Part shown: in pieces, positions 1 to 11,546 of the stretch
How the letters are laid out: each line of letters starts with the position of its first letter
Position numbering within the stretch: the stretch's first letter is position 1
Virus record (IMG/VR): IMGVR_UViG_2713896901_000004
Location: 1 to 11,546 of that record
Origin: a virus
Taxonomy: Duplodnaviria; Heunggongvirae; Uroviricota; Caudoviricetes
Direction: 5' to 3' (one strand)
Length of the DNA stretch: 11,546 bases
Notes under the pieces: model-generated
Database searches by the model: none
The model's input: the letters and a program-made list of their open reading frames with translations, nothing else
Told to the model about the DNA's origin: nothing
Program-made: the position numbers and the translations under genes

Positions 1-411
1 AAGCCCGCTTGCATTGATGACCATATCCACGGTGATGTTTTCATGTGTACCGAACCTGACAAGGACAGCAGCCCGCTTGTCGTCAGATAACTGATTAAAG
101 TTAACAATTTCTGCGTCAGGTTCAGGGGCGACCGGAACAAAGGAAGCCGACACCTCATTCCAGCGGTTTTCCTGCATATATTCGGAATCCCAGGAATCGA
201 GAGCAGGGCGGGCCATGCCGGGTTTATCCTCGCAGACAAGAAATTTATAAGCACAGTCCTGAGCTTCCGGGTATTGTTCCAGAAATAACCAGCTAAATTT
301 GGCTCTTGCCCGGCGTTCGTCGCCTGCTTCAATGGCAGTGGCCACAGGTTTAGCGCCTTCTGCTGTTGCCTGTTCGTCCGGAATGGCGGCGCAAATAAAG
401 ACTTTACTCAT
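1..411 (-). CDS. Hypothetical prophage protein, 3' end truncated by the window edge (137 codons visible)
   Basis: Open frame on the minus strand from ATG (plus 409-411) to the window start with no stop; GAGGT about 10 nt upstream of the ATG. It has no stop in the window, so it is absent from the ORF track. Translation starts MSKVFICAAIPDEQATAEGAKPVATAIEAGDERRARAKFSWLF. Sits where ydfE lies in the K-12 Qin dicB operon, but I do not recognise the sequence. Confidence 0.55.
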   Translation of the reverse strand, partial: MSKVFICAAIPDEQATAEGAKPVATAIEAGDERRARAKFSWLFLEQYPEAQDCAYKFLVCEDKPGMARPALDSWDSEYMQENRWNEVSASFVPVAPEPDAEIVNFNQLSDDKRAAVLVRFGTHENITVDMVINASGL

Positions 412-491
412 TTTGTTTTAACCTCATTACAGATTTAAGGGTGAACAAATCCCTGCCATTGCTGGCATATAAAAATGAAATCGGATATTAA

Positions 492-695
492 TTACGGTGC
501 TGTTTTAAGTCCTGCCGGGATTTCGTTATTGTCCATATGAATAACTTTATCGACCGGATAACAGTTACCGGGAATTTTTTGCTCTGCCGCGGCAGTCATG
601 CATTCTTCCATTGAGTCATGTATGTCAATAACAAGATCAATCGGTTCACCAGAAACAAAAAAAACAGTCAGAACGAGTACAAATGCCGTATTCAT
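492..695 (-). CDS. Small membrane protein with N-terminal hydrophobic segment, YdfD-like by position and size (67 aa)
   Basis: Preferred start MNTAFVLVLTVFFVSG: its ATG (plus 693-695) overlaps the stop of the upstream dicB-like gene (692-694) as ATGA on the minus strand, implying translational coupling. The track ORF 492..749 starts 18 codons earlier but without this coupling. Position after dicB matches ydfD in K-12 Qin (from memory). Confidence 0.5.
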   Translation of the reverse strand: MNTAFVLVLTVFFVSGEPIDLVIDIHDSMEECMTAAAEQKIPGNCYPVDKVIHMDNNEIPAGLKTAP

Positions 696-880
696 TGCCT
701 GCATCCTGTTTGCATCAGACGTAAACGGGCCAGCATCGAAACAATGCATATTTTATTTAGCAGTTCCTGTTCGTGTTTTCTTTTATTAATGGCATCTTCA
801 GTAAATATCTGATTGCTGATAGTGACACCAATTTCAAAACAACCTTCAGACGTATTAACGTTTGGTAATAACGTTTCCAT
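692..880 (-). CDS. dicB: DicB-like cell division inhibitor (62 aa)
   Basis: Internal start of track ORF 692..985, with GAGGA 7 nt upstream of the ATG (plus 878-880). Translation METLLPNVNTSEGCFEIGVTISNQIFTEDAINKRKHEQELLNKICIVSMLARLRLMQTGCRQ matches my recollection of E. coli DicB in length and most residues. Lies downstream of the dicF-like sRNA, as in Qin. Confidence 0.8.
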   Translation of the reverse strand: METLLPNVNTSEGCFEIGVTISNQIFTEDAINKRKHEQELLNKICIVSMLARLRLMQTGCRQ

Positions 881-1049
881 TATCGCGTCCTCAACAATGA
901 ATTTTGTGATGCGGTGCCTGGTGCCTCCAGGTGACGTTAACCAGTTAACAATTAACGCCGGATACAGAGAATCCACCCATAACACTGTTTTTAGCTTTAA
1001 CTGTTCCGCGTGCGCTTAGCCGCATTCACCGCATCACAAAATTCACTTT

Positions 1050-1105
1050 AAAAAGGGCGGACATCAGTTCATGGGCAAACAGATGCCGCCAAACGTCACC
1101 AGAAA
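1050..1105 (-). ncRNA. dicF: DicF-like Hfq-dependent sRNA
   Basis: Minus-strand sequence TTTCTGGTGACGTTTGGCGG... ends in a GC hairpin (GGCGG...CCGCC) followed by TTTTT. The 5' 20 nt match my memory of the K-12 DicF seed that targets ftsZ mRNA; the 3' hairpin differs. Located between ydfC and dicB as in Qin. Ends approximate. Confidence 0.7.
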
Positions 1106-1445
1106 ATTGATAACAGAGGGCGTTGCAGCGGGGTTGTCACTTAAGCGTATGGTCAACCTGACAACCCGGTGTCCTCAACGGGGAAGGAATAACCCCGCCA
1201 TACTTACCGCCGCGCCATTTCGCGGAGTGCCACAACCGGAAGCGCACGGTCGACGAAAATTTAACGACAGGCTATCTATGAACCAGCTACCTCGCCGTGC
1301 GCTTTCGCGTTATGGTCTGACTTTTCAGGGAAATATCCTTTCAGTAAACTGTCTGTGCCGGATGCTCACCCGTGTCCGGCGCACGCACTCCACCTCACCC
1401 GTGGAGAACTCCTTAATTACCAACCTTAGCTTCGTTGGTTAGCTA

Positions 1446-1664
1446 TTAACGCGGGTATGTAATCATTCTGGCAATGCTTAATGCCGCTGCTTTTTCCAGC
1501 CTGGTGATATCCTGCTCCAGAGCGGACAGATTTTCAGCCTGCTTATCCCTGGCTTCATTGGCCCATTTCAGATCCTGCGCTGCATTAATTTTCTGGCGCA
1601 TCCACTCATAAAGTTCATCATCGGTATAGTCTGGCGCGATGATGACGGGTTCTCGTTTCTGCAT
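1446..1664 (-). CDS. ydfC: YdfC-like small prophage protein (72 aa)
   Basis: Track ORF; GAGGA 6 nt upstream of the ATG (plus 1662-1664). Translation MQKREPVIIAPDYTDDELYEWMRQKINAAQDLKWANEARDKQAENLSALEQ; size and position match YdfC of the Qin dicB operon (recall). Confidence 0.65.
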   Translation of the reverse strand: MQKREPVIIAPDYTDDELYEWMRQKINAAQDLKWANEARDKQAENLSALEQDITRLEKAAALSIARMITYPR

Positions 1665-1693
1665 ACTGATTCCTCGCGGTGCTGCTTCGCTTA

Positions 1694-1822
1694 TCAGCCG
1701 TTAGATTTTGCCGAGCTGGAAAGCGCCTGTTTAAACTCACTGAAGCTGAGAGCTTCTTCGCCTTCGGCAAGGCCTTCGAAGTATTCTTCGTAAGCCTTTT
1801 CCATGATTGTGTCGAAATCCAT
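1694..1822 (-). CDS. ydfB: YdfB-like small protein (42 aa), below the ORF-track size cutoff
   Basis: Minus-strand ORF MDFDTIMEKAYEEYFEGLAEGEEALSFSEFKQALSSSAKSNG with AGGTGAG just upstream of the ATG (plus 1820-1822) and tandem stops (TGA TAA). Fills the gap between the ydfA-like and ydfC-like genes; size matches YdfB (recall). Confidence 0.65.
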   Translation of the reverse strand: MDFDTIMEKAYEEYFEGLAEGEEALSFSEFKQALSSSAKSNG

Positions 1823-1823
1823 A

Positions 1824-1979
1824 TCACTCACCTGAGTTTCTTTCCAGCCAGCGACGCGCGCCAGATTCGGTTTTAAACGTTTTGCTTTTGGTATACGTCA
1901 TCGCGGTGAACGTGCCGTCCTGGTTTGGGAACACGCCGCATACCAGAGATTCGTTGTTACCAAGATCGATAGTATCCAT
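1824..1979 (-). CDS. ydfA: YdfA-like small protein (51 aa, DUF1391-like)
   Basis: Internal start of track ORF 1824..2084: ATG (plus 1977-1979) preceded by GAGGT at 5-nt spacing. Translation MDTIDLGNNESLVCGVFPNQDGTFTAMTYTKSKTFKTESGARRWLERNSGE; a 51-aa product matches YdfA (recall). Confidence 0.7.
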   Translation of the reverse strand: MDTIDLGNNESLVCGVFPNQDGTFTAMTYTKSKTFKTESGARRWLERNSGE

Positions 1980-2055
1980 ATTGACCTCATTTCCCCTTAA
2001 CGCCGGGTAGCGGAACTGTTTGCTGAGAACACCGTGCGGTGTCTTGATGGGTGGT

Positions 2056-2084
2056 AATTTAGTTTTCTCATGAATGTTGGTCAA
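2056..2084 (-). promoter_or_regulatory. Candidate sigma70 promoter for the ydfA-ydfB-ydfC-dicF-dicB operon
   Basis: On the minus strand: TTGACC (plus 2079-2084), 17-nt spacer, TAAATT (plus 2056-2061). An inverted-repeat motif TGAGAAAACTCA (2095-2106) lies just upstream of the -35. Confidence 0.4.
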
Positions 2085-2168
2085 GTATTTTTAATGAGAA
2101 AACTCAATATTTAATGCAAAATAAAGCCAATACATTGAAATGTAAGGCTTTAAAATTTGTGAAGGGGG

Positions 2169-2576
2169 TTACTGATGTTTGTTACGTTTGCGAGCTTCTA
2201 GTAGCTCGGTGAATAGGCGATTAAAATTCTCAACGCGGGCACGGAGTTCGCTGATTTGTGCTTGCTGCTCTGATTTTGGAAGTGCGCGATACAATCGCAA
2301 CATCTCCAACTCATCTTCCGATAAGTCTAAGGCGCTGTTGAGTGCAACTGGTGGATCTGGTGTTTTATCCTCGTCACCAAACAGTATCCAAGTTGGTGAA
2401 CATTGCAATACCTCAGCCAGGCGATGCAAATTTTGCCCGCGCGGGGCTGTATGGTCGCTTTCCCATAGTGAAATTGATGAGCCAGATACGCCAGCGGCTT
2501 TGCTTAAATCGTTTTGACTTAAACCAACCTGTTTGCGTCTTTCTCTAATTCGTTGACCTAAAGTTTTCTCGTTCAT
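2169..2576 (-). CDS. dicA: DicA-like HTH (XRE-family) prophage repressor, 135 aa, no peptidase domain
   Basis: Track ORF. N-terminal HTH (QRIRERRKQVGLSQNDLSKAAGVSGSSISLWE) and the stretch VLQCSPTWILFGDEDK match my memory of E. coli K-12 DicA; same length (135 aa). Divergent from a Cro-like gene. Confidence 0.85.
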   Translation of the reverse strand: MNEKTLGQRIRERRKQVGLSQNDLSKAAGVSGSSISLWESDHTAPRGQNLHRLAEVLQCSPTWILFGDEDKTPDPPVALNSALDLSEDELEMLRLYRALPKSEQQAQISELRARVENFNRLFTELLEARKRNKHQ

Positions 2577-2653
2577 ATTTAGATATCTTAATAACCCTTG
2601 ACTTGAGATTCCTTGAGTGATTACTATTGAGAAAACTCAACTTTGGAGGGGTG
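2577..2653. promoter_or_regulatory. Divergent dicA/dicC intergenic control region with candidate rightward promoter and operator half-sites
   Basis: Rightward TTGACT (2598-2603), 18-nt spacer, TACTAT (2622-2627). Three TTGAG direct repeats and the inverted repeat TGAGAAAACTCA (2628-2639) overlap the -10 and start region. The same 12-mer recurs at 2095-2106. Confidence 0.5.
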
Positions 2654-2881
2654 ATGTTTAAATCAGACGTAATTAATTTTTATGGGACGAAAGCCAAAGT
2701 AGCGAAAGCTGCTGGTGTTGATCCATCTGCTGTTTCTCAATGGGGGGAACTGGTTCCTGAAGGTCGCGCGATGCGCCTGCAAGAGGCGTCCGGCGGGGAA
2801 CTTCAGTACGACCCCAAAGTTTATGACGAATATCGTAAGGCAAAGCGGGCGGGGCGGTTGAACAATGAAAATCACCCCTGA
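2654..2881 (+). CDS. dicC: Cro/DicC-like small DNA-binding protein (75 aa)
   Basis: ATG at 2654 with GGAGG 4 nt upstream; the track ORF begins at an upstream TTG (2627). Translation MFKSDVINFYGTKAKVAKAAGVDPSAVSQWGELVPEGRAMRLQEASGGELQYDPKVY resembles DicC/YdaS-type Cro-like proteins (recall). Divergent from dicA. Confidence 0.75.
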   Translation: MFKSDVINFYGTKAKVAKAAGVDPSAVSQWGELVPEGRAMRLQEASGGELQYDPKVYDEYRKAKRAGRLNNENHP

Positions 2882-3416
2882 ACAGGTTTGTGAGGCTCTG
2901 GATGCCTGGGTATGTCGACCAGGAATGACACAGGAGCAGGCGACGATATTAATCACGGAAGCATTCTGGGCTCTGAAAGAACGCCCGAACATCGATGTTC
3001 AACGCGTCACGTTTAATGATGGCGAGGTTGATCAACGGGCGCTGGGCGTTAACCGGGTGAAGATATTCGAACGCTGGAAAGCTATCGACACCAGGGATAA
3101 GCGGGAAAAATTCACGGCGCTGATTCCGGCAATTATGGAGGCTATCCGGATCAGCGATTTCAGGTTGTATTGTGAAATTACTGACGGAAAAAGCATTACG
3201 TACATGATCGCCGGGTTAAACAAAGAATATGGCGATGTGGTGGAGTCCGGGCTGCTTTTTGCGGATCCATCTGTTGTGGAACGTGAGACTGACGAGCTTA
3301 TAGAAAAAGCTATTGCTTTCAAGCATGCGTATCGTCAGCAATATCAATATTACTTTGCAGATAAACAAATGTCTGCCAGGGGTTCGTATGAGTATCGATG
3401 CACTACGATGGGCTAA
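2865..3416 (+). CDS. YdaT-like prophage protein occupying the CII position (183 aa)
   Basis: Track ORF; its start overlaps the end of the Cro-like gene by 17 nt. The motif REKFTALIPAIMEAI resembles YdaT-family proteins that follow Cro-like genes in Rac-type prophages (recall, unverified). Confidence 0.55.
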   Translation: MKITPEQVCEALDAWVCRPGMTQEQATILITEAFWALKERPNIDVQRVTFNDGEVDQRALGVNRVKIFERWKAIDTRDKREKFTALIPAIMEAIRISDFRLYCEITDGKSITYMIAGLNKEYGDVVESGLLFADPSVVERETDELIEKAIAFKHAYRQQYQYYFADKQMSARGSYEYRCTTMG

Positions 3417-4428
3417 AAAGGTGAAAACCGGCAGTTCATCCAGTAAGTCTGTATTGACCTGGCTTGCTGATATGTGCGGTGCCGATTTGTGTGCATACCC
3501 GTCTGTATCTGCACTGGCAGAAGTAACGGAACTGAACAAAAAGACTGTGCAGGACAGCTTACGACACCTGATGGAGATTGGGTTAATTGTTGATACCGGT
3601 GAGAGAAAAGGCAGAACAAAGCAAATTGTGGTGTACCGACTTATCGGTGTAGAAGAAAGTGTTGCCGAGCCTGAATACACCCAAAAACGGGAGTCTTTAA
3701 AGGTGGGTAAAATTGGTGCTGTTAATAAAAACAGTACCGAAAATGGTTATGTTTCAGCACAAAACAGACCCAAAAACGGAACTCTTAGCTGCATGGAAAA
3801 TAACCAAAGACACCCAAATTTTCCATCAAAGACACCCAAAAACGGATCACGGAACCCAAAGGAACCCAAAGATCTAAACCCCACACATAACGCACGCGAG
3901 AGTGCTCCGACCAGTGAGCAGGAAGTTTTATCGTTACAGGCAGCACCCCTTGTATTCCTGGATGGCCTGAGCGAACCCATCGGAAAATTTCCGATGACCG
4001 ATAGCTGGTATCCGTCACGGGATTTTCGACGACGGGCTGCGTTGTGGGGGATGGCTTTGCCGGAGACAGAATTTACACCTGCTGAACTTGCCGCCTTCCG
4101 GGACTACTGGGCAGCGGAGGGGAAAGTGTTTACGCAGATTCAGTGGGAGCAGAAATTCGCCCGTCACGTAAATCACGTCAGGGCGCAGGTTAAACCAGTC
4201 AGCAAGGGGGTAAGCCATGCAGCAGCACCAGGTAGTACCGCATCACGGGCAGTTCAGGAAATTCGGGCCGCACGTGAGCAGTGGGAACGTGAAAACGGAT
4301 TTATCAGCGACGGAAACGGCGTGGAAGTTGTGGGAGCTCATGGGGGAGGTTTATTCAAACCGCTGGACTCAGAAGAACGGGGCCGCACCTTCGACGCTCT
4401 GGATTGCACAGATTGGCGCGATGACTGA
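3388..4428 (+). CDS. Replication initiator candidate: N-terminal winged-helix domain, low-complexity linker, C-terminal DnaT-like domain (346 aa from the chosen start)
   Basis: Track ORF 3313..4428 starts at a TTG; I prefer ATG 3388 (MSIDALRWAKKVKTG...), which overlaps the upstream gene's 3' end. The linker coding region holds ACCCAAA iterons (3768-3870). Domain assignment is from pattern recall. Confidence 0.6.
   Translation: MSIDALRWAKKVKTGSSSSKSVLTWLADMCGADLCAYPSVSALAEVTELNKKTVQDSLRHLMEIGLIVDTGERKGRTKQIVVYRLIGVEESVAEPEYTQKRESLKVGKIGAVNKNSTENGYVSAQNRPKNGTLSCMENNQRHPNFPSKTPKNGSRNPKEPKDLNPTHNARESAPTSEQEVLSLQAAPLVFLDGLSEPIGKFPMTDSWYPSRDFRRRAALWGMALPETEFTPAELAAFRDYWAAEGKVFTQIQWEQKFARHVNHVRAQVKPVSKGVSHAAAPGSTASRAVQEIRAAREQWERENGFISDGNGVEVVGAHGGGLFKPLDSEERGRTFDALDCTDWRDD
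3760..3875. repeat. Iteron-like direct repeats (ACCCAAA core, 5 copies) inside the initiator gene; candidate replication origin
   Basis: ACCCAAA at 3768, 3812, 3834, 3854 and 3864. CAAAGACACCCAAA is exact at 3805-3818 and 3827-3840; ACCCAAAAACGGA is exact at 3768-3780 and 3834-3846; GGAACCCAAA is tandem at 3851-3870. Moderately AT-rich flank at 3715-3765. Resembles ori-lambda inside gene O. Confidence 0.45.
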
Positions 4429-4882
4429 GCAGCAAATCCGGCAGGTCTGCCGCCAGTGCATGGACCGCTGCCGGGCGGGTGAAACATGGCCCCCGGACCT
4501 GGCTGAGTTTGTGGCGCTGATTTCGGAAAGCGGGGCCAACCCATTTGGTCTGACTGTGGATGCCGTGATGGAAGAATACCGCCGCTGGCGCAATGAGTCA
4601 TGGCGATACGACGGAAGCGATAAATATCCGTGGTCACAGCCCGTGCTGTATCACATTTGCCTCGAGATGCGTTCAAAGGGGATTGAACGCCAGATGACCG
4701 AAGGGGAATTAAAACGGTTTGCAGAACGGCAGCTGACGAAATGGGCAAAGCATGTTAGTAACGGCCTGAGCGTTCCGCCAGTACGGCGACAACTGGCGGC
4801 ACCAAAACGCCCGTTGGGACCAACGCCAATTGAGTTGCTGAAACAGGAGTATGAACGCCGGAAAGCGGCTGGTTTTGTCTGA
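4421..4882 (+). CDS. Replication P-family (helicase-loader-like) protein candidate (153 aa)
   Basis: ATG 4421 overlaps the initiator stop (4426-4428) as ATGACTGA, implying coupling; the track ORF 4217..4882 starts earlier inside the initiator gene. Family call rests on position after the initiator and on recall; no Walker A motif, so not DnaC-like. Confidence 0.45.
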
Positions 4883-4916
4883 TTTGAGAAGTAATTTTTA
4901 CCGGGAGGAAATTTTA

Positions 4917-5678
4917 ATGGAAACCGTTTTTGATGCACTGAAAGCAATGGGAAAAGCCACGTCGGTAGAACTGGCTACGCGACTTGATATCAGTCGTGAA
5001 GAAGTGCTGAACGAGCTGTGGGAACTGAAAAAGGCTGGCTTCGTTGATAAAAGCGTATACACCTGGCGTGTGGCTTATAACAACGTTCAGCAGGAACAGC
5101 CAGCGCCGGCAGAACTGCCGGAAGAAACCACCACGGCAACAGTCGCTAAAATTTCGGAGAACGATTTAACTGCGACGATTGAACAACGTGGACCACAAAC
5201 GGCGGATGAACTGGCTACGCTGTTCGGTACCACATCCCGCAAAGTGGCTTCAACGCTGGCAATGGCAATCAGCAAAGGTCGTCTGATTCGTGTAAACCAG
5301 AACGGTAAATTTCGTTACTGCATACCGGGTGATAATTTACCAGCAGAGCCGAAAGTTGAATCGGTAGCGGAAACCGATGGTAAAGCCTTTCCTCAGCCAG
5401 CAGGTGTTGCGTTACCAGTACAGGAAGCTGCAACACAGGAAGATATTAAAACAGGAACTGTGGCTGATATTGTGCAATCGTTGCCATCGTTTACTGAAAC
5501 GCGAGCGGATGACCTGGTTTTACCATCGCTGCATATGGCAAACCGCGAATTGCGTCGGGCGAAAAGTCATGTCCAGAAGTGGGAGCGAGTCTGCGCCGCG
5601 CTGCGGGAGCTGAACAAGCACCGGGATATTGTTCGACAGATTACTGATTCTTCTCGCTGTGTTGCATCGGAAAAGTGA
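4917..5678 (+). CDS. Hypothetical protein with two tandem winged-helix-like segments (253 aa)
   Basis: ATG 4917 has GGAGG 8 nt upstream; the track ORF starts at 4851. Two similar segments (about residues 1-60 and 95-150) each look like a wHTH: ...[28 protein letters not shown]... and ...[30 protein letters not shown].... Confidence 0.6.
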
Positions 5679-5693
5679 TTGCCGGAGGCGCTT

Positions 5694-6185
5694 ATGGCAA
5701 AAGTATTTACACAAGAAGAGCGGGAAAAAATCAAGGGGCAGGTTGTTGAACTCGTGCGCCAGAGTGGGCGCGAGACGTTACGACAACTGGAAGCCAAGAC
5801 AGGTGCGACAAGATATCTGATGAGCATTCTCGCCAGAGAGCTGGTTGCCAGTGGTGATGTATACAACTCTGGCTACGGGTTATTCCCGTCTGAACAGGCC
5901 CGTAAGGACTGGCAAAACGCCCGCAAAAAACTATCCAGGGCTAAGGTGAAAAAAACGGTTGTGGTTGATCCTGACCTTATCTGGTCATTACCAGACGGAG
6001 AAATACGCCGCTACGACAGGCGTCAAAACATAATCTGTAGCGAGTGCCGGAAGAGCGAAGTTATGCAGCGCGTGCTGGCGTTTTATCAAGGAGGTGGCGC
6101 TGTGAGTGAAATTAGCTATCAGGCTTCAATTGCCGCTGGCATTCGCATCAAAGGAGAGGAGCATGGAAATAAAACCAGAAGATGA
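5694..6185 (+). CDS. Hypothetical prophage protein (163 aa)
   Basis: ATG 5694 with GGAGG upstream; the track ORF begins at 5679. No family recognised. Its 3' end overlaps the next gene by 23 nt. Confidence 0.55.
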   Translation: MAKVFTQEEREKIKGQVVELVRQSGRETLRQLEAKTGATRYLMSILARELVASGDVYNSGYGLFPSEQARKDWQNARKKLSRAKVKKTVVVDPDLIWSLPDGEIRRYDRRQNIICSECRKSEVMQRVLAFYQGGGAVSEISYQASIAAGIRIKGEEHGNKTRR

Positions 6186-6519
6186 GTTAAGTAATATTGT
6201 TTTATTTCCGGTAAAAGAGGATGACCCACGTAATCAGGTTAATTTTCTTTATGAGCCATCGAAAAGACCATATTGTCATCACGCCTCTGTCCGTGTTGAC
6301 GAAAAAGAGCGTCAGGTCCGCTGTAAAATCTGCGGTGCAGTTGTGGAGCCATTTGACTGGATGCTCTCTGTGGCGAAAAGAGAAACCAGACTGGCAGATG
6401 ATGTAAGGCTCTTGCGCCAGGAGGAACGGGAAAGGCGGAGAAATATAGAAAAGCTAATTCAGATTGAGCGTAACGCGAAAGCGCGGATACGCAGGGCGGC
6501 AAAATCAAGAACTGAATAA
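6163..6519 (+). CDS. Hypothetical protein with a Cys/His cluster and a basic coiled-coil-like tail (118 aa)
   Basis: ATG 6163 (MEIKPEDEL...) with GGAGAGGAG upstream; the track ORF starts at 6106. Motif C-H-H...C-x2-C (YCHHASVRVDEKERQVRCKICG), then an R/E-rich C-terminus. Confidence 0.5.
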   Translation: MEIKPEDELSNIVLFPVKEDDPRNQVNFLYEPSKRPYCHHASVRVDEKERQVRCKICGAVVEPFDWMLSVAKRETRLADDVRLLRQEERERRRNIEKLIQIERNAKARIRRAAKSRTE

Positions 6520-6612
6520 TTAAATTTAGCACTGTTAAAAATTTAATCCTTAACCGGAGGGATTTCTGCACCCTCAGAACATCAGGAGGCCGTTCGAAAT
6601 GGCGGTAGTGAA

Positions 6613-6795
6613 ATGCGAAAATTCAAAATAATTATTGAAACGGGAATAGCTGGTGGAGATTTTGAGGATGTATTCGAAGTAGATGATGACGCAACACCTG
6701 ATGAAATTCATGACGAAGCAAAAGAAATTTTCTTTAACTACTGCAATTACTCATATCACGAAATAAAAGGCGAGGAGGAAGAACAAAATGGCTGA
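6613..6795 (+). CDS. Small, strongly acidic hypothetical protein (60 aa)
   Basis: Track ORF; 18 of 60 residues are D/E, with a terminal EEEEQ run. No good SD directly upstream; instead AGGAGG (6584-6589) serves a 10-codon ORF (6599-6631) that overlaps this start out of frame. Confidence 0.4.
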   Translation: MRKFKIIIETGIAGGDFEDVFEVDDDATPDEIHDEAKEIFFNYCNYSYHEIKGEEEEQNG

Positions 6796-6964
6796 TTTTG
6801 GTTCAACTAAATACAACGTCAGTTTTGAAGAATGGCATGAACTGTTAATGGATTATGCAGAGTTACGTGGTGGAAGTGCTGCTGATGCTGAAGCCTGGCG
6901 TGATGACTACGAAGCAGGAAAAACACCTGTCGAAGCATATTGTGATGAGTGGGGCGATGAATGA
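6788..6964 (+). CDS. Small, strongly acidic hypothetical protein (58 aa), below the ORF-track cutoff
   Basis: ATG 6788 preceded by GAGGAGGAA. Translation MADFGSTKYNVSFEEWHELLMDYAELRGGSAADAEAWRDDYEAGKTPVEAYCDEWGDE. Its stop overlaps the next gene's start as ATGA (6961-6964), and its start overlaps the end of the previous acidic ORF. Confidence 0.5.
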   Translation: MADFGSTKYNVSFEEWHELLMDYAELRGGSAADAEAWRDDYEAGKTPVEAYCDEWGDE

Positions 6965-7476
6965 GCGAGATTAATTATCAGGAAGGGCATGAAACGGCAG
7001 GGCAGGCAAAACCAGTTGCATGGCGATATCGCTACGTGAAAAAAGGCGTTACGGACTTTCAGGAGAATCTGTGGGTTGGTGACTGGAAATATGTACCGAC
7101 AAAAGAGGATTGCAACGACAGGCCGAACTATGAAATTCAGGCCTTATTCGCTGCCCCGCCAGTTCCGGTGACATCAGAAGGACTGGTTAAAGCCGTGCGC
7201 TTTTATGAACAGGTAAAGCGTGAGAATCCACCAGTCGAAACAGGAGTATGGAAAGATGCTGTTGATTGGGTTCTCAAAGAGGCCTGCTGTGCTGTCATTC
7301 TGGGTAAAGCCGACAATCCATTAGCATCCAGTAACCAAGTTGGCGAATTAACAATGTGGGTTAAACGACTGGTCAGTCAACTGAAAAAAGCTAATCCAGA
7401 CTGCAAATTACCGGAGAAGGCGATGGACTACCTGAAGCGGAACGAACTGATAAGCGCGGAGGATGTTTTGCGATGA
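6961..7476 (+). CDS. Hypothetical prophage protein (171 aa)
   Basis: Track ORF, translationally coupled to the upstream small ORF. No family recognised. Confidence 0.55.
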   Translation: MSEINYQEGHETAGQAKPVAWRYRYVKKGVTDFQENLWVGDWKYVPTKEDCNDRPNYEIQALFAAPPVPVTSEGLVKAVRFYEQVKRENPPVETGVWKDAVDWVLKEACCAVILGKADNPLASSNQVGELTMWVKRLVSQLKKANPDCKLPEKAMDYLKRNELISAEDVLR

Positions 7477-7556
7477 CCTGGCCTGAAGCATTCACAACGG
7501 TAGGAATTGCAATAGCGGTGGCGCTGGTGGTGTATTCGATTTGCCACTGGATGTGA
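7473..7556 (+). CDS. Possible 27-aa single-pass membrane peptide
   Basis: ATG 7473 overlaps the stop of the 171-aa gene (ATGA). Translation MTWPEAFTTVGIAIAVALVVYSICHWM is mostly one hydrophobic helix. Not in the ORF track; very short, so low confidence. Confidence 0.3.
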   Translation: MTWPEAFTTVGIAIAVALVVYSICHWM

Positions 7557-7717
7557 GGTATTAAAAAACGCCCCGCACACAGACGTTGAGCGCCTGAGAT
7601 GTGGGGATAGGGAGTTAGTTAAATAGTTATACAACAATACCTGATTTTATATTGAAGCAAGAAATAGGTTGCTACATATTGAACCATGCGCGTGTACGTC
7701 AAATATGGGAGGTCATC

Positions 7718-7807
7718 GTGCTGGTTCTGAAATGTGCGCTGGCTATTGCGGCAGTAATGGCAATTTATTGTCTTGTTATCGTTCTTATGAATCACCTCTC
7801 TGATTGA
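7718..7807 (+). CDS. Possible 29-aa hydrophobic peptide with GTG start and strong SD
   Basis: GGGAGG (7707-7712), 5-nt spacer, GTG 7718. Translation (M)LVLKCALAIAAVMAIYCLVIVLMNHLSD. A candidate promoter TTGAAG-17-CATATT lies at about 7652-7680. Sits just upstream of the hok locus. Not in the ORF track. Confidence 0.3.
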   Translation: MLVLKCALAIAAVMAIYCLVIVLMNHLSD

Positions 7808-7814
7808 TTTTATA

Positions 7815-7843
7815 TTGGCGAGGTGACGTGAGTTAAGTAGAAT
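7815..7843 (+). promoter_or_regulatory. Candidate promoter of the hok/mok mRNA
   Basis: TTGGCG (7815-7820), 17-nt spacer, TAGAAT (7838-7843). The predicted start near 7850 precedes GGGTGCTTGAGGCTATCTGCCTC, which resembles the 5' end of plasmid R1 hok mRNA (recall). Confidence 0.45.
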
Positions 7844-7961
7844 TGCTGCGGGTGCTTGAGGCTATCTGCCTCGGGCATGAACACCAACGGCAGATAGAGA
7901 AAAGCCCCAGTTAACATTACGCGTCCTGCAAGACGTTTAACATTAATCTGAGGCCCAATCT

Positions 7962-8174
7962 ATGCTTCACAAACGTAGGTTAGCCTCTTACGTGCCGAAA
8001 GGCAAGGAGAAGCAGGCTATGAAGCAGCAAAAGGCGATGTTAATCGCCCTGATCGTCATCTGTTTAACCGTCATAGTGACGGCACTGGTAACGAGGAAAG
8101 ACCTCTGCGAGGTACGAATCCGAACCGGCCAGACGGAGGTCGCTGTCTTCACAGCTTACGAACCTGAGGAGTAA
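7962..8174 (+). CDS. mok: Mok-like reading frame: in-frame N-terminal extension of hok (70 aa)
   Basis: Track ORF; ATG 7962 with GAGG 8 nt upstream. It shares frame and stop with hok, as mokC does with hokC in E. coli K-12 (recall). Confidence 0.55.
   Translation: MLHKRRLASYVPKGKEKQAMKQQKAMLIALIVICLTVIVTALVTRKDLCEVRIRTGQTEVAVFTAYEPEE
8019..8174 (+). CDS. hok: Hok/Gef-family type I toxin (51 aa)
   Basis: ATG 8019 with AAGGAGA 8 nt upstream. Translation MKQQKAMLIALIVICLTVIVTALVTRKDLCEVRIRTGQTEVAVFTAYEPEE is a canonical Hok sequence, closest in my memory to HokD/RelF. Confidence 0.85.
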   Translation: MKQQKAMLIALIVICLTVIVTALVTRKDLCEVRIRTGQTEVAVFTAYEPEE

Positions 8175-8242
8175 GAGACCAGGCGGGGGAGAAATCCCTC
8201 GCCACCTCTGATGTGTCAGGCATCCTCAACGCACCCGCACTT

Positions 8243-8270
8243 AACCCGCTTCGGCGGGTTTTTGTTTTTA
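8243..8270 (+). terminator. Rho-independent terminator at the end of the hok mRNA
   Basis: CCCGC-TTCG-GCGGG hairpin (8245-8258) followed by TTTTTGTTTTT. Confidence 0.65.
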
Positions 8271-8282
8271 TTTTCAACGCGT

Positions 8283-8312
8283 TTGAAGTTTTAGATTGTG
8301 CCGGAATAGAAT
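8283..8312 (+). promoter_or_regulatory. Candidate sigma70 promoter for the downstream 86-aa gene
   Basis: TTGAAG (8283-8288), 18-nt spacer, TAGAAT (8307-8312). Confidence 0.35.
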
Positions 8313-8394
8313 CAAAAATACTTAAGTAGCGCGCAGGGAGAAGAGGGATGGACCCCGAACAGGGGAGTGCTATTTATCTGGAAGGATTCTGTTG

Positions 8395-8655
8395 ATGAAA
8401 ATCGAAGAATTACGTGAAATTTTTAGTGAAGATGGCCTCTATACTGTGCGCGTTGAGAATGGCGCTATTGTCAGCCACTGCCGTATTAAATGTTTACAGT
8501 CTCAACAAAGGAAGAGTGGAGCTGCGTTAATTCATTTTGTGGATGGGCTTGTGACGGATGGTTTTATTTTGCGTGCAAATGAATTTGTCACATCGTTGCC
8601 GTCTCTGAAAGAAGCTGGGATTAAGGCTGGTTTTTCTGCTTTTGAAGATGAGTGA
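8395..8655 (+). CDS. Hypothetical small prophage protein (86 aa); may correspond to rem of Qin by position
   Basis: ATG 8395; the track ORF starts at TTG 8392. AGGA about 9 nt upstream. Lies between hok and the DUF968 gene, where rem lies in K-12 Qin (recall); sequence identity not verified. Confidence 0.45.
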   Translation: MKIEELREIFSEDGLYTVRVENGAIVSHCRIKCLQSQQRKSGAALIHFVDGLVTDGFILRANEFVTSLPSLKEAGIKAGFSAFEDE

Positions 8656-8721
8656 ATTCATCTACAATTCAGCGCAGGGCTGAACCCCTGTTGAGTAACA
8701 CTGTGCCACCGGAGAAAGCCG

Positions 8722-9000
8722 ATGGCGCAAAATTCCAGACTACACAATTCTGATAATTCAGCCGTCTTTGCCAGCAGGCACGGGCGGCGTTCTCATGCAT
8801 TCAAATCTGACTGGTTCCAGCACGCCCCATGCACTGAAGAACAGGCCGAATGGCTGATTCAGAACTACCGCAGACGTGGGTATGAGTTTAGGAAAGCCCT
8901 CAGCCTCGATTATCGTCACTGGATAATCTCCGTCAGGCTTCCTTACTCTGAACGCCCACCGCGTCCGTCCCGCACATTCCAGCAACGCATCTGGAGGTAA
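8722..9000 (+). CDS. Hypothetical protein (92 aa), uncertain
   Basis: Track ORF with GGAG 8-11 nt upstream. Arg/Trp-rich composition and no recognisable family; could be a real small gene or a remnant. Confidence 0.3.
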   Translation: MAQNSRLHNSDNSAVFASRHGRRSHAFKSDWFQHAPCTEEQAEWLIQNYRRRGYEFRKALSLDYRHWIISVRLPYSERPPRPSRTFQQRIWR

Positions 9001-9010
9001 CCGGGTACTG

Positions 9011-9997
9011 GTGGAGCCGGAACCGAAAAGCATGCGTAATCTGCCGTCCGGGGTCGTTCCTGCCGTTCGCCAGCCGCTGGCGGAGGATAAATCATTACTG
9101 CCATTTTTCAGCGACGAACGAGTGATTCGTGCTGCTGGTGGCGCTGGCGCATTGTCTGACTGGTTACTGCGCCATGTTAAATCCTGCCAGTGGCCACACG
9201 GCGATTATCACCACAGTGAAACCGTCATTCACCGTTATGGTACCGGCGCAATGGTGTTGTGCTGGCACTGCGACAACCAGCTGCGTGACCAGGCATCCGA
9301 ATCACTCGAGCAACTTGCTCATCAAAACCTGTCAGCATGGATGATTAACGTCATCGGTCACGCAATAAGCGGTACGCAGGAGCGTGAATTATCTCTGGCT
9401 GAATTATCCTGGTGGGCGGTCCGCAATCAGGTGGCGGACGCGCTACCGGAAGCGGTATTACGTCGTTCGCTGGGGTTGCGTGCGGAAAAAATCCGCTCAA
9501 TGTACCGTGAAAGCGACATCGTACCGGGAGAGCAGACCGCCACCAGCATACTGAAGCAGCGCACAAAAAATCTTGCGCCGCTGCCTCACGCCCACCAGCA
9601 AAACCCGCCACAGGAAGAGGCGGTGGTCAGCAAAACCCCGCCACAGGAAGAGGCGGTGGTCAGCATTGCCGTTGATCCGGAGTCACCGGCTCAGTATCTC
9701 CAGCGCCAGAAACCACAACGGGAAGAGATGCCTGTATACACGCGCTGGGTAAAAACGCAGAAATGCATGACGTGCGGTAATCAGGCAGATGATCCGCATC
9801 ACATCATTGGTCATGGACTGGGAGGGATGGGAACAAAGGCTGATGATTTGTTTGTTATTCCGCTGTGCCGTAAATGCCATAGCGAACTACACGCCGGGGT
9901 AAAAGATTTTGAAGAAAAACACGGCAGCCAGCTGTTGTTGCTGATTCGTTTTTTAATGCACGCGAGAAATTCGGGTGTCCTGAAGTGGAAAGCATGA
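9011..9997 (+). CDS. ydfU: DUF968/YdfU-like protein with C-terminal Cys/His (HNH-like) motif (328 aa)
   Basis: Track ORF with GTG start at 9011; an alternative ATG is at 9032. C-terminal CMTCGNQADDPHHIIGHG...PLCRKCHSELH is a Cys-x2-Cys...His-His...Cys-x2-Cys-His arrangement typical of DUF968 proteins (recall). Contains a tandem 30-bp duplication (PPQEEAVVS twice). Confidence 0.65.
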   Translation: MEPEPKSMRNLPSGVVPAVRQPLAEDKSLLPFFSDERVIRAAGGAGALSDWLLRHVKSCQWPHGDYHHSETVIHRYGTGAMVLCWHCDNQLRDQASESLEQLAHQNLSAWMINVIGHAISGTQERELSLAELSWWAVRNQVADALPEAVLRRSLGLRAEKIRSMYRESDIVPGEQTATSILKQRTKNLAPLPHAHQQNPPQEEAVVSKTPPQEEAVVSIAVDPESPAQYLQRQKPQREEMPVYTRWVKTQKCMTCGNQADDPHHIIGHGLGGMGTKADDLFVIPLCRKCHSELHAGVKDFEEKHGSQLLLLIRFLMHARNSGVLKWKA

Positions 9998-10363
9998 ATG
10001 ACTGAACGCATAGAATTTGTTTTGCCTTACCCGCCGACGGTGAATACCTACTGGCGACGTCATGGCAATACGTATTTCATCTCGGAGGCCGGAAAGCGTT
10101 ATCGCCATGATGTGGCGCTAATTGTTCGCCAGCAGCGGTTGAAATTAAACCTGTCCGGAAGGCTGGCGATAAAGATTATTGCAGAGCCATCGGATAAGCG
10201 CCGTCGTGACCTGGACAATATCCTGAAAGCACCACTGGATGCGCCGACGCATGCCGGACTACTCATAGACGACGAGCAGTTTGATGAAATCAATATTGTG
10301 CGCGGTCAGCTCGTTCCTGGTGGGCGGCTGGGGATAAAAATCACAGAATTGGAGTGCGCATGA
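9998..10363 (+). CDS. rusA: RusA Holliday-junction resolvase (121 aa)
   Basis: Track ORF; its ATG abuts the upstream stop. Translation MTERIEFVLPYPPTVNTYWRRHGN...RRRDLDNILKAPLDA...GGRLGIKITE matches the RusA family pattern, including the catalytic RRRDLDN region (recall of E. coli RusA). Confidence 0.85.
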   Translation: MTERIEFVLPYPPTVNTYWRRHGNTYFISEAGKRYRHDVALIVRQQRLKLNLSGRLAIKIIAEPSDKRRRDLDNILKAPLDAPTHAGLLIDDEQFDEINIVRGQLVPGGRLGIKITELECA

Positions 10364-11049
10364 ATAACCAGTATTTACAGTTTGTGCGTGAGCAGCTCAT
10401 TATCGCCACCGCTGATTTGAGTGGGGCAACAAAAGGTCAGCTTGAAGCCTGTCAGGAGAATGCCATGTTCGATACAGGGCGTTACAGGCGAAAAAAAATC
10501 CGGTACCGCGATGAAGTGACTGGAAAAATGATAACGCGGGATAATCCACCAATCCCGGGAAAACAATCACTGGCGAATGGCTCATCAATTGCCCTGGTCA
10601 GCCCGGTTGAGTTTTCGACATCATCATGGCGGCGGGCTTTGCTGTCTCTTGAAGAGCATCATAAAGCCTGGTTGTTGTGGTGTTACGGCGAGAGTATTTG
10701 TTGGGAATATCAGATCGCGATAACACAGTGGGCGTGGAATGAATTTAATACTCAATCCGGTACCAGAAAAATTGCAGGGAAAACGCAGGAACGCCTGAAA
10801 AAATTAATCTGGCTGGCGGCGCAGGCAGTAAAAGCAGAACTTTTTGGTGGGGAAGGTTATGAATACCAGGAGCTGGCATTACTGGCGGGAGTGACAACTA
10901 AAAACTGGTCCAAAACATTTACTCGTCACTGGGTTGCAATGAAACACATTTTTCACCGACTTGATAGTGAGGCTTTATTGTTTGTAATGAGAACACGTTC
11001 AAAACAAAAGGCGGCATTTTCAAAGCAAAGTGTTGCAAAAGTAGATTGA
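10360..11049 (+). CDS. Late-gene antiterminator Q candidate (229 aa)
   Basis: ATG 10360 overlaps the rusA stop (ATGA) with GGAG 5 nt upstream; the track ORF begins at GTG 10354. Call rests on position (after rusA, before a PR'-like promoter, a short-transcript terminator and a tRNA cluster) plus partial recall of Q-family proteins. Confidence 0.55.
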   Translation: MNNQYLQFVREQLIIATADLSGATKGQLEACQENAMFDTGRYRRKKIRYRDEVTGKMITRDNPPIPGKQSLANGSSIALVSPVEFSTSSWRRALLSLEEHHKAWLLWCYGESICWEYQIAITQWAWNEFNTQSGTRKIAGKTQERLKKLIWLAAQAVKAELFGGEGYEYQELALLAGVTTKNWSKTFTRHWVAMKHIFHRLDSEALLFVMRTRSKQKAAFSKQSVAKVD

Positions 11050-11061
11050 AAGGCATATATT
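11033..11061 (+). promoter_or_regulatory. PR'-like late promoter candidate
   Basis: TTGCAA (11033-11038), 17-nt spacer, TATATT (11056-11061), overlapping the 3' end of the Q-like gene. Predicted start near 11068; a terminator follows about 45-70 nt downstream, as with lambda PR'/tR'. Confidence 0.45.
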
Positions 11062-11112
11062 TCATGCAAATCTGATATTTTGCCGATTTTGTACGTGATG
11101 GCAAAAGCAAAC

Positions 11113-11141
11113 AAAACCCGCCCACAAGCGGGTTTTGTTTG
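11113..11141 (+). terminator. tR'-like rho-independent terminator
   Basis: AACCCGC-CCACAA-GCGGGTT hairpin (11115-11134) followed by TTGTTTG. Confidence 0.6.
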
Positions 11142-11258
11142 CCACTTATCTCGGATAGACATGGTGAATGCGCTGGTGGAGGAGGTAAGGGTAATTTTTA
11201 ATCAGGTGATTCTTGAATGCTTGCAACATTTATTTCGTAACGTTATTATCCTGCGCCC

Positions 11259-11334
11259 GGCCCTTTAGCTCAGTGGTGAGAGCGAGCGACTCATAATCGC
11301 CAGGTCGCTGGTTCAAATCCAGCAAGGGCCACCA
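11259..11334 (+). tRNA. tRNA-Ile2-like, anticodon CAU (lysidine type), 76 nt
   Basis: Cloverleaf folded by hand: acceptor GGCCCTT/AAGGGCC, D-arm GCTC...GAGC, anticodon loop CTCATAA, T-loop TTCAAAT, 3' CCA. Closely resembles my memory of E. coli ileX. Met versus Ile2 cannot be decided from sequence alone. Confidence 0.8.
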
Positions 11335-11335
11335 A

Positions 11336-11412
11336 CCGTCAGCAGTTCATCAGGAAAGAGCGTCAACCCTTTAAGTTGAGTGTGCGAGGTTCGAGTCCCC
11401 GGTGGCGGTCCA
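11336..11412 (+). tRNA. tRNA-like gene with noncanonical features; anticodon loop reads CCUUUAA (UUU, Lys-type by position), identity uncertain
   Basis: Hand fold: acceptor 6 of 7 pairs (one G.U, one G/G mismatch), D-stem GTTC/GAGC with one G.U, perfect anticodon stem TCAAC/GTTGA, T-arm CGAGG-TTCGAGT-CCCCG with one A/C mismatch, 3' UCCA. Position 8 is C and position 33 is C, both atypical. Confidence 0.45.
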
Positions 11413-11414
11413 GT

Positions 11415-11490
<76 letters not shown>

Positions 11491-11493
11491 TAT

Positions 11494-11546
<53 letters not shown>

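Follow-up and report, generated by a model that had tools for sequence, protein, structure and literature searches.

The gene cluster and its setting

The DNA analysed here (the window) is a stretch of 11,546 nucleotides (nt), positions 1 to 11,546 of the virus record IMGVR_UViG_2713896901_000004 (Caudoviricetes), and the subject of this study is a run of seven open reading frames (ORFs), g1 to g7, at positions 4917–7556. The ORF map and the annotation of a matching RefSeq locus identify the window as the early region of a Rac/Qin-type lambdoid prophage of Escherichia coli. A preliminary description, made from the letters alone, had placed a cluster of seven genes between the replication module and the hok locus. 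That location is correct, with the O- and P-type replication genes upstream and hokD/sok downstream, and the ORF map together with direct reading of the sequence confirms seven co-directional plus-strand ORFs with the coordinates and overlaps first described (Table 1). The overlap of g2 with g3 is 23 nt and that of g4 with g5 is 8 nt (ATGGCTGA), the g5/g6 and g6/g7 junctions at 6961 and 7473 are ATGA overlaps, and gaps of 15 and 93 nt separate g1 from g2 and g3 from g4, respectively. Clear GGAGG-type Shine-Dalgarno (SD) sequences precede g1, g2, g3, g5 and g7, and those of g4 and g6 are weak; the earlier statement that the SD sequences are mostly strong is thus borne out at five of the seven starts. 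The first characterization of the products (a tandem winged-helix protein, a Cys/His protein with a basic tail, acidic mini-proteins and a membrane peptide) likewise holds by profile scans, alignment, predicted isoelectric point (pI) and grand average of hydropathy (GRAVY). The G+C fraction falls from ∼0.50 over g1–g2 to ∼0.40 over g4–g5. Rfam scans, run with gathering and E-value thresholds, gave no RNA family inside 4917–7556; sok and transfer RNAs were found outside it, and the remaining matches were at chance level.

Table 1. Features of the window, with the seven ORFs of the cluster and the genes that flank them
Feature	Position	Strand	Basis
dicA-like repressor	2169–2576	minus	ORF map and RefSeq locus annotation
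dicC/cro-like gene	2627–2881		ORF map and RefSeq locus annotation
YdaT-family gene	2865–3416		ORF map and RefSeq locus annotation
DnaT-like O-type replication gene	ends 4428	plus	ORF map and RefSeq locus annotation
Replication protein P	4421–4882	plus	ORF map and RefSeq locus annotation
g1, DUF1627/YdaW family, 253 amino acids	4917–5678	plus	
g2, DUF977/LygF, Ren family by sequence, 163 amino acids	5694–6185	plus	
g3, predicted zinc ribbon and long basic helix, phrog_1621, 118 amino acids	6163–6519	plus	
g3–g4 intergenic linker, 93 nt	6520–6612	plus	
g4, DUF7167 acidic mini-protein, 60 amino acids	6613–6795	plus	
g5, acidic mini-protein, 58 amino acids	6788–6964	plus	
g6, three-module protein, 171 amino acids	6961–7476	plus	
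g7, hydrophobic ORF, 27 amino acids	7473–7556	plus	
sok RNA beside hokD	7850–8024		Rfam RF01794, 113 bits

The seven ORFs are genes and not chance reading frames, as established by their annotation, their family matches and the selection acting on them. In a RefSeq locus of E. coli AF20 (NZ_OZ547052.1, locus L001), which is 99.7% identical to the window region, the Prokaryotic Genome Annotation Pipeline (PGAP) names six of the seven; g7 carries no PGAP annotation there or elsewhere among the records inspected. Matches of the cluster proteins to family hidden Markov models (HMMs) range from 1e-14 to 1e-129. The ratio of non-synonymous to synonymous substitution rates (dN/dS), pooled over related alleles and taken against the window allele, is 0.15 for g1, 0.12 for g3, 0.08 for g4, 0.04 for g5 and 0.26 for g6, with the replication gene P at 0.07 for comparison. 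The g7 frame is unbroken in every one of the 42 loci where it occurs, and its 18 alleles give a pN/pS of 0.28; they differ with an excess at third positions, and the changes are mostly third-position or conservative hydrophobic ones. Since dN/dS lies at 0.04–0.26 and the g7 pN/pS at 0.28, g1, g3, g4, g5, g6 and g7 are under purifying selection, and all six also conserve their frames.

Distribution of the seven genes

Prevalence was counted by megablast in 5426 complete E. coli genomes, and the counts depend on an identity of about 85%. Some part of the 2.75-kb interval occurs in 4674 of the 5426 genomes, and near-identical copies of cluster components are present in thousands of genomes, whereas the whole interval is colinear (≥80%) in only 98. 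Prevalence differs from one segment to the next: g1 and g2 are found in 963 genomes, g4–g5 in 1749 and g6–g7 in 305 (each at ≥80% coverage), g3 is found in 1679, and g3–g5 are contiguous in 1226 (about 23%). The genes are hence not gained and lost together in the manner of a multi-gene system, with 98 colinear genomes against 305–1749 for the separate cassettes.

The same pattern emerges from 160 IMG/VR loci, the 80 best matches of each search anchored on g6 or g3, in which the order of the genes is kept and the content is variable. Among the g6-anchored loci with enough upstream sequence, g3 is present in 34/50, g1 in 32/50 and g2 in 41/50, and only 11 of 52 g3-anchored loci contain g6. The g2/g3 overlap of the window recurs in just three loci, the usual arrangement being a 78-nt gap or an insert of 750–990 nt; the RefSeq relative L002 has g2 as a pseudogene, with four extra genes separating it from g3. 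Members of the cluster also occur in other operons and other hosts. The Shiga toxin (Stx) phage ArgO145 encodes homologues of g3, g4 and g5 (gp17, gp15 and gp14; 95–97% amino acid identity) in its leftward early operon, the exo-xis/ea22 region, among Ead/Ea22-like genes and with an extra gene separating g3 from g4. In Enterobacter prophages, a 79% identical g5 directly follows an Ead_Ea22 gene, both beside xis/int and after P, and the other six genes are lacking for 4 kb around it, apart from locus L166, where a Ren-like ORF follows P. The Serratia prophages carry a 54% identical g3 between RusA or NinG and a 52-amino-acid ORF that precedes Q, and none of the other six cluster genes is present at these loci. 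A 50% identical relative of g4 has no g5 beside it.

We conclude that the cluster is probably a mosaic of early accessory genes, each exchanged independently of the others, and not a single system. The preliminary description had seen in this position a hotspot for cargo and the most likely seat of any undescribed system that the window might hold; the variable cargo position stands, as content differs among related loci, and the single coupled system falls, as the genes assort independently. Its statement that none of the products belongs to a known family also has to be given up: g1 belongs to DUF1627, g2 to DUF977 and phrog_142, and g4 to DUF7167, and g3, g5 and g6 fall into PHROG families of unknown function. 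The interval is already known as sequence, its components being held in Pfam, PHROGs and RefSeq as DUF or hypothetical proteins. A check of the seven proteins against PADLOC-DB 2.0 for defence content returned no defence model; g1 gave a weak best match of the Csa3/CARF-helix-turn-helix (HTH) type at 3.9e-5, and g2–g7 gave nothing.

Two database records that resemble the cluster carry unexpected host labels. L175 (JAIHTM010000290.1, 'MAG: Collinsella sp.') is a 3-kb contig with homologues of g2–g6 at 88–97% amino acid identity and is almost certainly a mis-binned enterobacterial prophage fragment. Actinobacillus phage vB_Apl-pPE4 (PP818812.1) has about 90% nucleotide identity over 58% of the interval, which is unexpected given its stated host, Actinobacillus pleuropneumoniae.

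Junctions between the genes

Homology between the window and ArgO145 breaks at 6135, 6563/6582, 7009 and 7378. It begins at 6135, inside g2 and 28 nt before the start of g3, and the final 15 residues of g2 (AGIRIKGEEHGNKTR) are identical to the C-terminal end of gp18, an Ea22-like protein encoded ahead of the g3 homologue in ArgO145; lambda Ea22 ends in AGIRIKGE. The g2 tail travels with g3 because it encodes the g3 ribosome-binding site. On the other side, the g4–g5 homology block reaches 49 nt into g6, to 7009, and the ATGA that follows the C-terminal module of g6 is kept in 82 loci that lack g7 and have a 3-codon ORF instead. The overlaps had been taken to mark functional coupling, a view that is difficult to maintain when they persist beside different neighbours and the junctions coincide with recombination joints. 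From these alignments, the overlaps are better explained as conserved linkers for cassette exchange, in which cassettes would be swapped at the tight junctions, the last ∼28 nt of g2 moving with g3 and the first ∼49 nt of g6 with g5. Ea22 proteins have been described as mosaics with portable C-terminal domains (PMC10834534), a picture that the modular make-up of g6 fits.

g1 and g2

g1 belongs to Pfam family DUF1627 (PF07789; YdaW), with 326.6 bits against a gathering cutoff of 28.1 (2.6e-98) over profile positions 1–155 of 155, and it matches phrog_630 at 5.7e-129; PGAP labels it 'DUF1627 domain-containing protein' and phage records 'YdaW family protein'. Its sequence comprises two winged-helix-like stretches (sub-threshold Pfam HTH matches at residues 4–47 and 83–137) and a helical C-terminus, and an NCBIfam scan gave weak HTH matches and nothing further. 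g2, a basic protein (pI 9.9), belongs to DUF977 (PF06163; LygF), with 106.4 bits against a cutoff of 22.1 (1.6e-30) over positions 1–132 of 134. It matches phrog_142, 'Ren-like exclusion protein', at 9.9e-46, a family that lambda Ren itself matches at 1.6e-41, and direct BLASTP aligns g2 residues 112–131 with Ren residues 73–92 (55% identity over 20 residues, E = 1e-4). By these matches, g2 is assigned to the lambda Ren family. Lambda ren mutants are sensitive to Rex exclusion, and Ren classically lets the phage escape exclusion of the Rex type; the protein itself is poorly understood. By analogy, g2, and perhaps g1, might act as lambda Ren does, in replication and in escape from Rex exclusion.

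A literature search on DUF1627, DUF977, DUF7167 and LygF gave no functional study beyond two items, the assignment of a winged-helix fold to DUF977 (PMC2686095) and a screen in which ydaW of K-12, when overexpressed, figured among several prophage genes acting as 'blockers' of RcaT, the toxin of retron-Sen2 (10.1101/2020.06.22.160242). The length of ydaW varies among E. coli strains (PMC9308461). A link to prophage Pas small RNAs was considered, as a preprint lists DUF1627 among the conserved genes within 10 kb of PasA/PasC loci, and was dropped, as the same preprint puts pasA, pasC and pasD1 beside the holin/lysozyme operon, outside 4917–7556.

The position of the pair raises the alternative that g1 and g2 are auxiliary parts of the replication module, winged helices that bind DNA or replication proteins, and not cargo. 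g1 starts 35–36 nt after P (tblastn coordinates) in 35/35 loci that have both, g2 keeps its spacing after g1 in 53/55, and in other prophages the pair comes after another loader, YdaV (DnaC-like). In the window, g1 stands between P and g2; the Ren-like ORF of L166 follows P directly, as ren does in lambda. In one preprint, ren is called 'likely involved in DNA replication', and Rex proteins are reported to contact O and Ren in two-hybrid assays (10.1101/2021.04.19.439022). Against such a role, g1 and g2 are present in only part of the g6-anchored loci counted above, g2 is a pseudogene in L002 with the region otherwise intact, and no DNA target or partner is known. Moreover, lambda ren is dispensable for growth. 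We regard a replication role of the pair as rather unlikely; it is in any case compatible with a mosaic of exchangeable genes.

g3, g4 and g5

g3 matches phrog_1621 (function unknown) at 1.1e-55 and belongs to a family spread across Enterobacterales. In an alignment of 30 Enterobacterales sequences, C38, H40, C54 and C57 are invariant and the C-terminal segment (LR.EE..RR.NIEKLIQIERNAKARIRR) is near-invariant. An AlphaFold2 (AF2) model of moderate confidence (predicted local distance difference test, pLDDT, 76.5) shows a hairpin at residues 43–54 and a helix at 63–117, and a Pfam match to the TFIIB zinc ribbon lies below the cutoff (1.6e-4). From its invariant helix, g3 may be expected to bind a conserved partner, which could be nucleic acid or a host protein. 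In seven proteins (P0121, P0124, P0132, P0151, P0159, P0161 and P0163), an Ead_Ea22, DUF977, DUF1627 or DUF1133 domain precedes most of the g3 sequence in a single chain; such fusions are rare (one-sequence clusters on 1–4 contigs) and probably arose by deletion or frameshift where the genes overlap.

g4 belongs to DUF7167 (PF23768; 52.8 bits against a cutoff of 24.4, 4.4e-14) and matches phrog_1997 at 3.6e-30, and g5 matches the C-terminal part of phrog_519 (function unknown) at 4.5e-23. With predicted pI values of 4.1 and 4.05, respectively, both are very acidic, and their dN/dS values are the lowest of the cluster. Their overlap is kept in 135/136 E. coli-type loci. The small size and acidity of the pair hint at roles as decoys or inhibitors.

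The linker ahead of g4 gives a g3–g4 spacing of 96 nt (tblastn coordinates) in 97/111 loci. It contains the start of a 10-codon upstream ORF (ATG 6599, MAVVKCENSK, stop 6629–6631) with a perfect AGGAGG site, which overlaps the weakly initiated g4 start at 6613. In the region 6520–6631, the spacer also carries a short hairpin and an inverted repeat, TTAAATTT...AAATTTAA. ArgO145 (L163, 4658–4755) and L002 (2799–2869) each have part of the linker a second time, at other gene junctions. The idea of the linker as a repeated recombination element was set aside, with two copies in only 2/155 loci by short-query BLAST.

The three genes might nevertheless form a functional cassette, g3-g4-g5 or at least g4-g5, that shuttles between the two early operons, leftward and rightward. 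The contiguous trio accounts for 1226 genomes against 1679 for g3 and 1749 for g4–g5, the same trio is found in a different operon of ArgO145, and the close g4/g5 overlap, strong purifying selection and shared acidity all favour such a unit. On the other hand, about 450–520 genomes hold one partner without the contiguous trio, ArgO145 has an extra gene between g3 and g4 and separate homology blocks, Enterobacter carries g5 without g3 or g4 and Serratia g3 without g4 or g5, and the 50% identical g4 relative stands without g5. Recent common descent alone may explain the linkage within E. coli. A unit of this kind is in our estimate improbable, and so is the example of it in which a zinc-ribbon protein and two acidic inhibitors or decoys are directed against a host or prophage-encoded target. 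The related notion of an uncharacterised host-takeover or anti-defence cassette that can sit in either lambdoid early operon is of similarly low likelihood. Its parts are equally doubtful: that g4 and g5, perhaps paired, neutralise a nucleic-acid-binding defence protein of the host or of a prophage, and, a suggestion in which we place little confidence, that the near-invariant basic helix of g3 targets a conserved host factor.

g6 and g7

g6 matches phrog_660 (function unknown) at 2.6e-73 and other PHROGs in part. Its matches among 1.84 billion representative proteins resolve into three separable modules (about residues 15–70, 58–115 and 108–171), which sit C-terminally in proteins of many different sizes; some of these proteins carry Ead_Ea22 or DUF551 domains. 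By this pattern of matches, g6 is a chimera of three shuffled modules. Its N-terminus, MSEINYQ, resembles Ea22-type starts, and residues 119–171 are 62% identical to ArgO145 gp10. The AF2 model is of low confidence (pLDDT 65.8; predicted template modelling score 0.34) and has one small beta module and two helical ones, with low-confidence or disordered linkers between them. Matches of g6 in the PDB to AI-designed TIM barrels were disregarded, as they cover residues 111–154 only, with no independently significant aligned stretch. A PDB sequence search with g1, g2, g3 and g6 gave nothing usable, and a literature search gave no functional study of g3, g5 or g6.

g7 is a single hydrophobic stretch (GRAVY 1.32) with a GGAGGA site upstream and no family match in Pfam or PHROG scans. 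It is plausibly a real small membrane peptide.

Expression and weighing of the readings

No promoter-like or plus-strand terminator-like site was found inside 4917–7556. The interval would accordingly be read through from outside, as an accessory segment of the rightward early operon with six protein genes and one probable small-peptide gene.

Two readings of the cluster as a whole compete with this one. That the ORFs are decaying, functionless remnants of a defective prophage is very improbable: prophages of the Rac/Qin type are frequently defective and L002 has a DUF977 pseudogene, but the dN/dS of g1 and g3–g6 is comparable to that of P, the ORFs are intact across many alleles, and the same genes occur in sequenced phage records, including Stx-converting phages. 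That all seven genes form one undescribed operon-level multi-component system, for defence, anti-defence or another purpose, as tight packing, stop/start overlaps, common orientation and a location in the variable cargo space of lambdoid phages might suggest, is extremely improbable in view of the few colinear genomes, the prevalence that differs per gene, the varying content of related loci, the occurrence of g3–g5 in another operon of Stx phages, of g5 alone in Enterobacter and of g3 alone in Serratia, the overlaps that persist beside different neighbours and the absence of a meaningful PADLOC match.

The mosaic of independently exchangeable genes therefore remains our preferred reading, and several points weigh against it. 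Within E. coli, about 70% of the genomes with either g3 or g4–g5 have the three genes side by side, and g4 and g5 hardly ever occur apart; because of this contiguity, there may be some functional linkage among the three. The IMG/VR loci, as best matches to g6 or g3, are biased to close relatives. Related alleles were pooled for dN/dS, and for g2 a single full-length comparison allele was found, hence no estimate is given. Foldseek searches returned no significant match for g3 (the top match being the TFIIB zinc ribbon, E = 0.14) and no fold match in the PDB for g6. The expression proposed for the genes follows from their layout: g1–g7 would most likely be transcribed from the rightward early promoter once the prophage is induced or a cell is infected, because the interval has no promoter-like or plus-strand terminator-like site of its own, and translation may be coupled at the overlapping stop/start junctions. 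Each product would most likely act on its own, as a small early modulator that affects the host, the choice between lysis and lysogeny, or competing phages.

Neighbouring features

An unannotated hydrophobic ORF of 29 amino acids lies between g7 and the sok RNA (GTG 7718 to stop 7807, VLVLKCALAIAAVMAIYCLVIVLMNHLSD), with a GGGAGG site 5 nt upstream and its end just ahead of the hok promoter-like site (7815–7843). On the minus strand of 7560–7850, a promoter-like site (7836–7807) and a hairpin followed by U6 (7587–7567) would give an antisense RNA of ∼250 nt, which folds better than shuffled sequence (z = −2.79). The region 7692–7850 is about 90% identical in many E. coli genomes, where it has no annotation, and strain EC12 retains the ORF together with its start and SD sequence, with four synonymous and five non-synonymous changes. 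Next to hokD, this could represent a second small toxin-like ORF paired with an antisense RNA, or simply chance. Both g7 and this ORF could be unannotated small membrane proteins.

Further downstream, the hokD/sok locus is followed by a DUF968 gene, RusA, the Q antiterminator and transfer RNAs. The translation of the DUF968 gene (9011–9997) contains a direct tandem duplication in mid-protein (…PPQEEAVVSKTPPQEEAVVS…). At the Q antiterminator, window positions 10354–11049 diverge from L001 positions 11576–11944 in an otherwise near-identical locus: the window has an ORF of 231 amino acids, and L001 has a 122-amino-acid Q-family gene followed by different minus-strand genes. Judged from this alignment, the divergence appears to be a further mosaic breakpoint downstream of RusA.

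Comparison with known systems

Tightly packed genes with stop/start overlaps are no sign of a multi-component system in the early regions of lambdoid phages. The cluster carries little weight as a discovery, as the families are catalogued and parts of it occur in most E. coli genomes. On the other hand, g3, g4, g5 and the DUF1627/Ren-like pair are very common, strongly conserved and uncharacterised, and offer cheap targets for functional screens of accessory genes.

The interval invites comparison with the ren/nin region of lambda, which likewise lies after the replication genes and before Q on the rightward early transcript and consists of small, tightly packed and often overlapping genes. 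However, none of NinB–NinI lies inside the interval, and RusA and the DUF968 gene are placed further downstream; the seven proteins gave no significant BLASTP match to lambda NinB, NinD, NinE, NinF or NinH. The preliminary description had considered that all seven products might prove to be well-characterised nin-region proteins, and only g2 matches a named lambda family. The likeness of g2 to Ren is one of shared membership in phrog_142 and the 55% identical C-terminal stretch, whereas g2 is the longer protein (163 against 96 amino acids for Ren) and a second winged-helix gene, g1, stands between P and g2. In BLASTP against a wider set (lambda Ren, the five Nin proteins, Ea8.5, Ea22, Orf60a/61/63, Ea10, Ral, Kil and Gam), only the Ren–g2 match and matches at junctions were obtained. 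For g1, the counterpart is ydaW of the Rac prophage of E. coli K-12, a member of the same Pfam family at the same position after the replication genes, which differs in having a variable length among strains (g1, 253 amino acids).

For g3, the small zinc-binding hairpin and long helix predicted from the model are reminiscent of TFIIB zinc ribbons and of DksA/TraR-like proteins such as lambda Orf73. In g3, the zinc site comes first and the helix after, with a C-H-C-C ligand set, and TraR differs in both its domain order and its zinc ligands. A Pfam scan of g3 to E = 0.1 gave no family of the DksA/TraR type.

The interval also corresponds to the exo-xis/ea22 region of lambda and Stx phages, for genes of which effects on lysogeny have been reported. 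That region contains the 95–97% identical ArgO145 counterparts of g3, g4 and g5, g2 ends and g6 begins with junction sequences of the Ea22 type, and the C-terminal modules of g6 are common to proteins that carry Ead_Ea22 or DUF551 domains. The Ead_Ea22 domain itself (PF13935) is matched by none of the seven proteins in Pfam scans, in which g5 and g6 have no match even at E = 0.1, and BLASTP found no similarity of the seven to lambda Orf60a, Orf61, Orf63, Ea8.5 or the body of Ea22; the link of g6 to Ead/Ea22 proteins is confined to the 7-residue N-terminal junction and the shared C-terminal modules. The cluster differs in place, its genes lying in the rightward operon and not between exo and xis.

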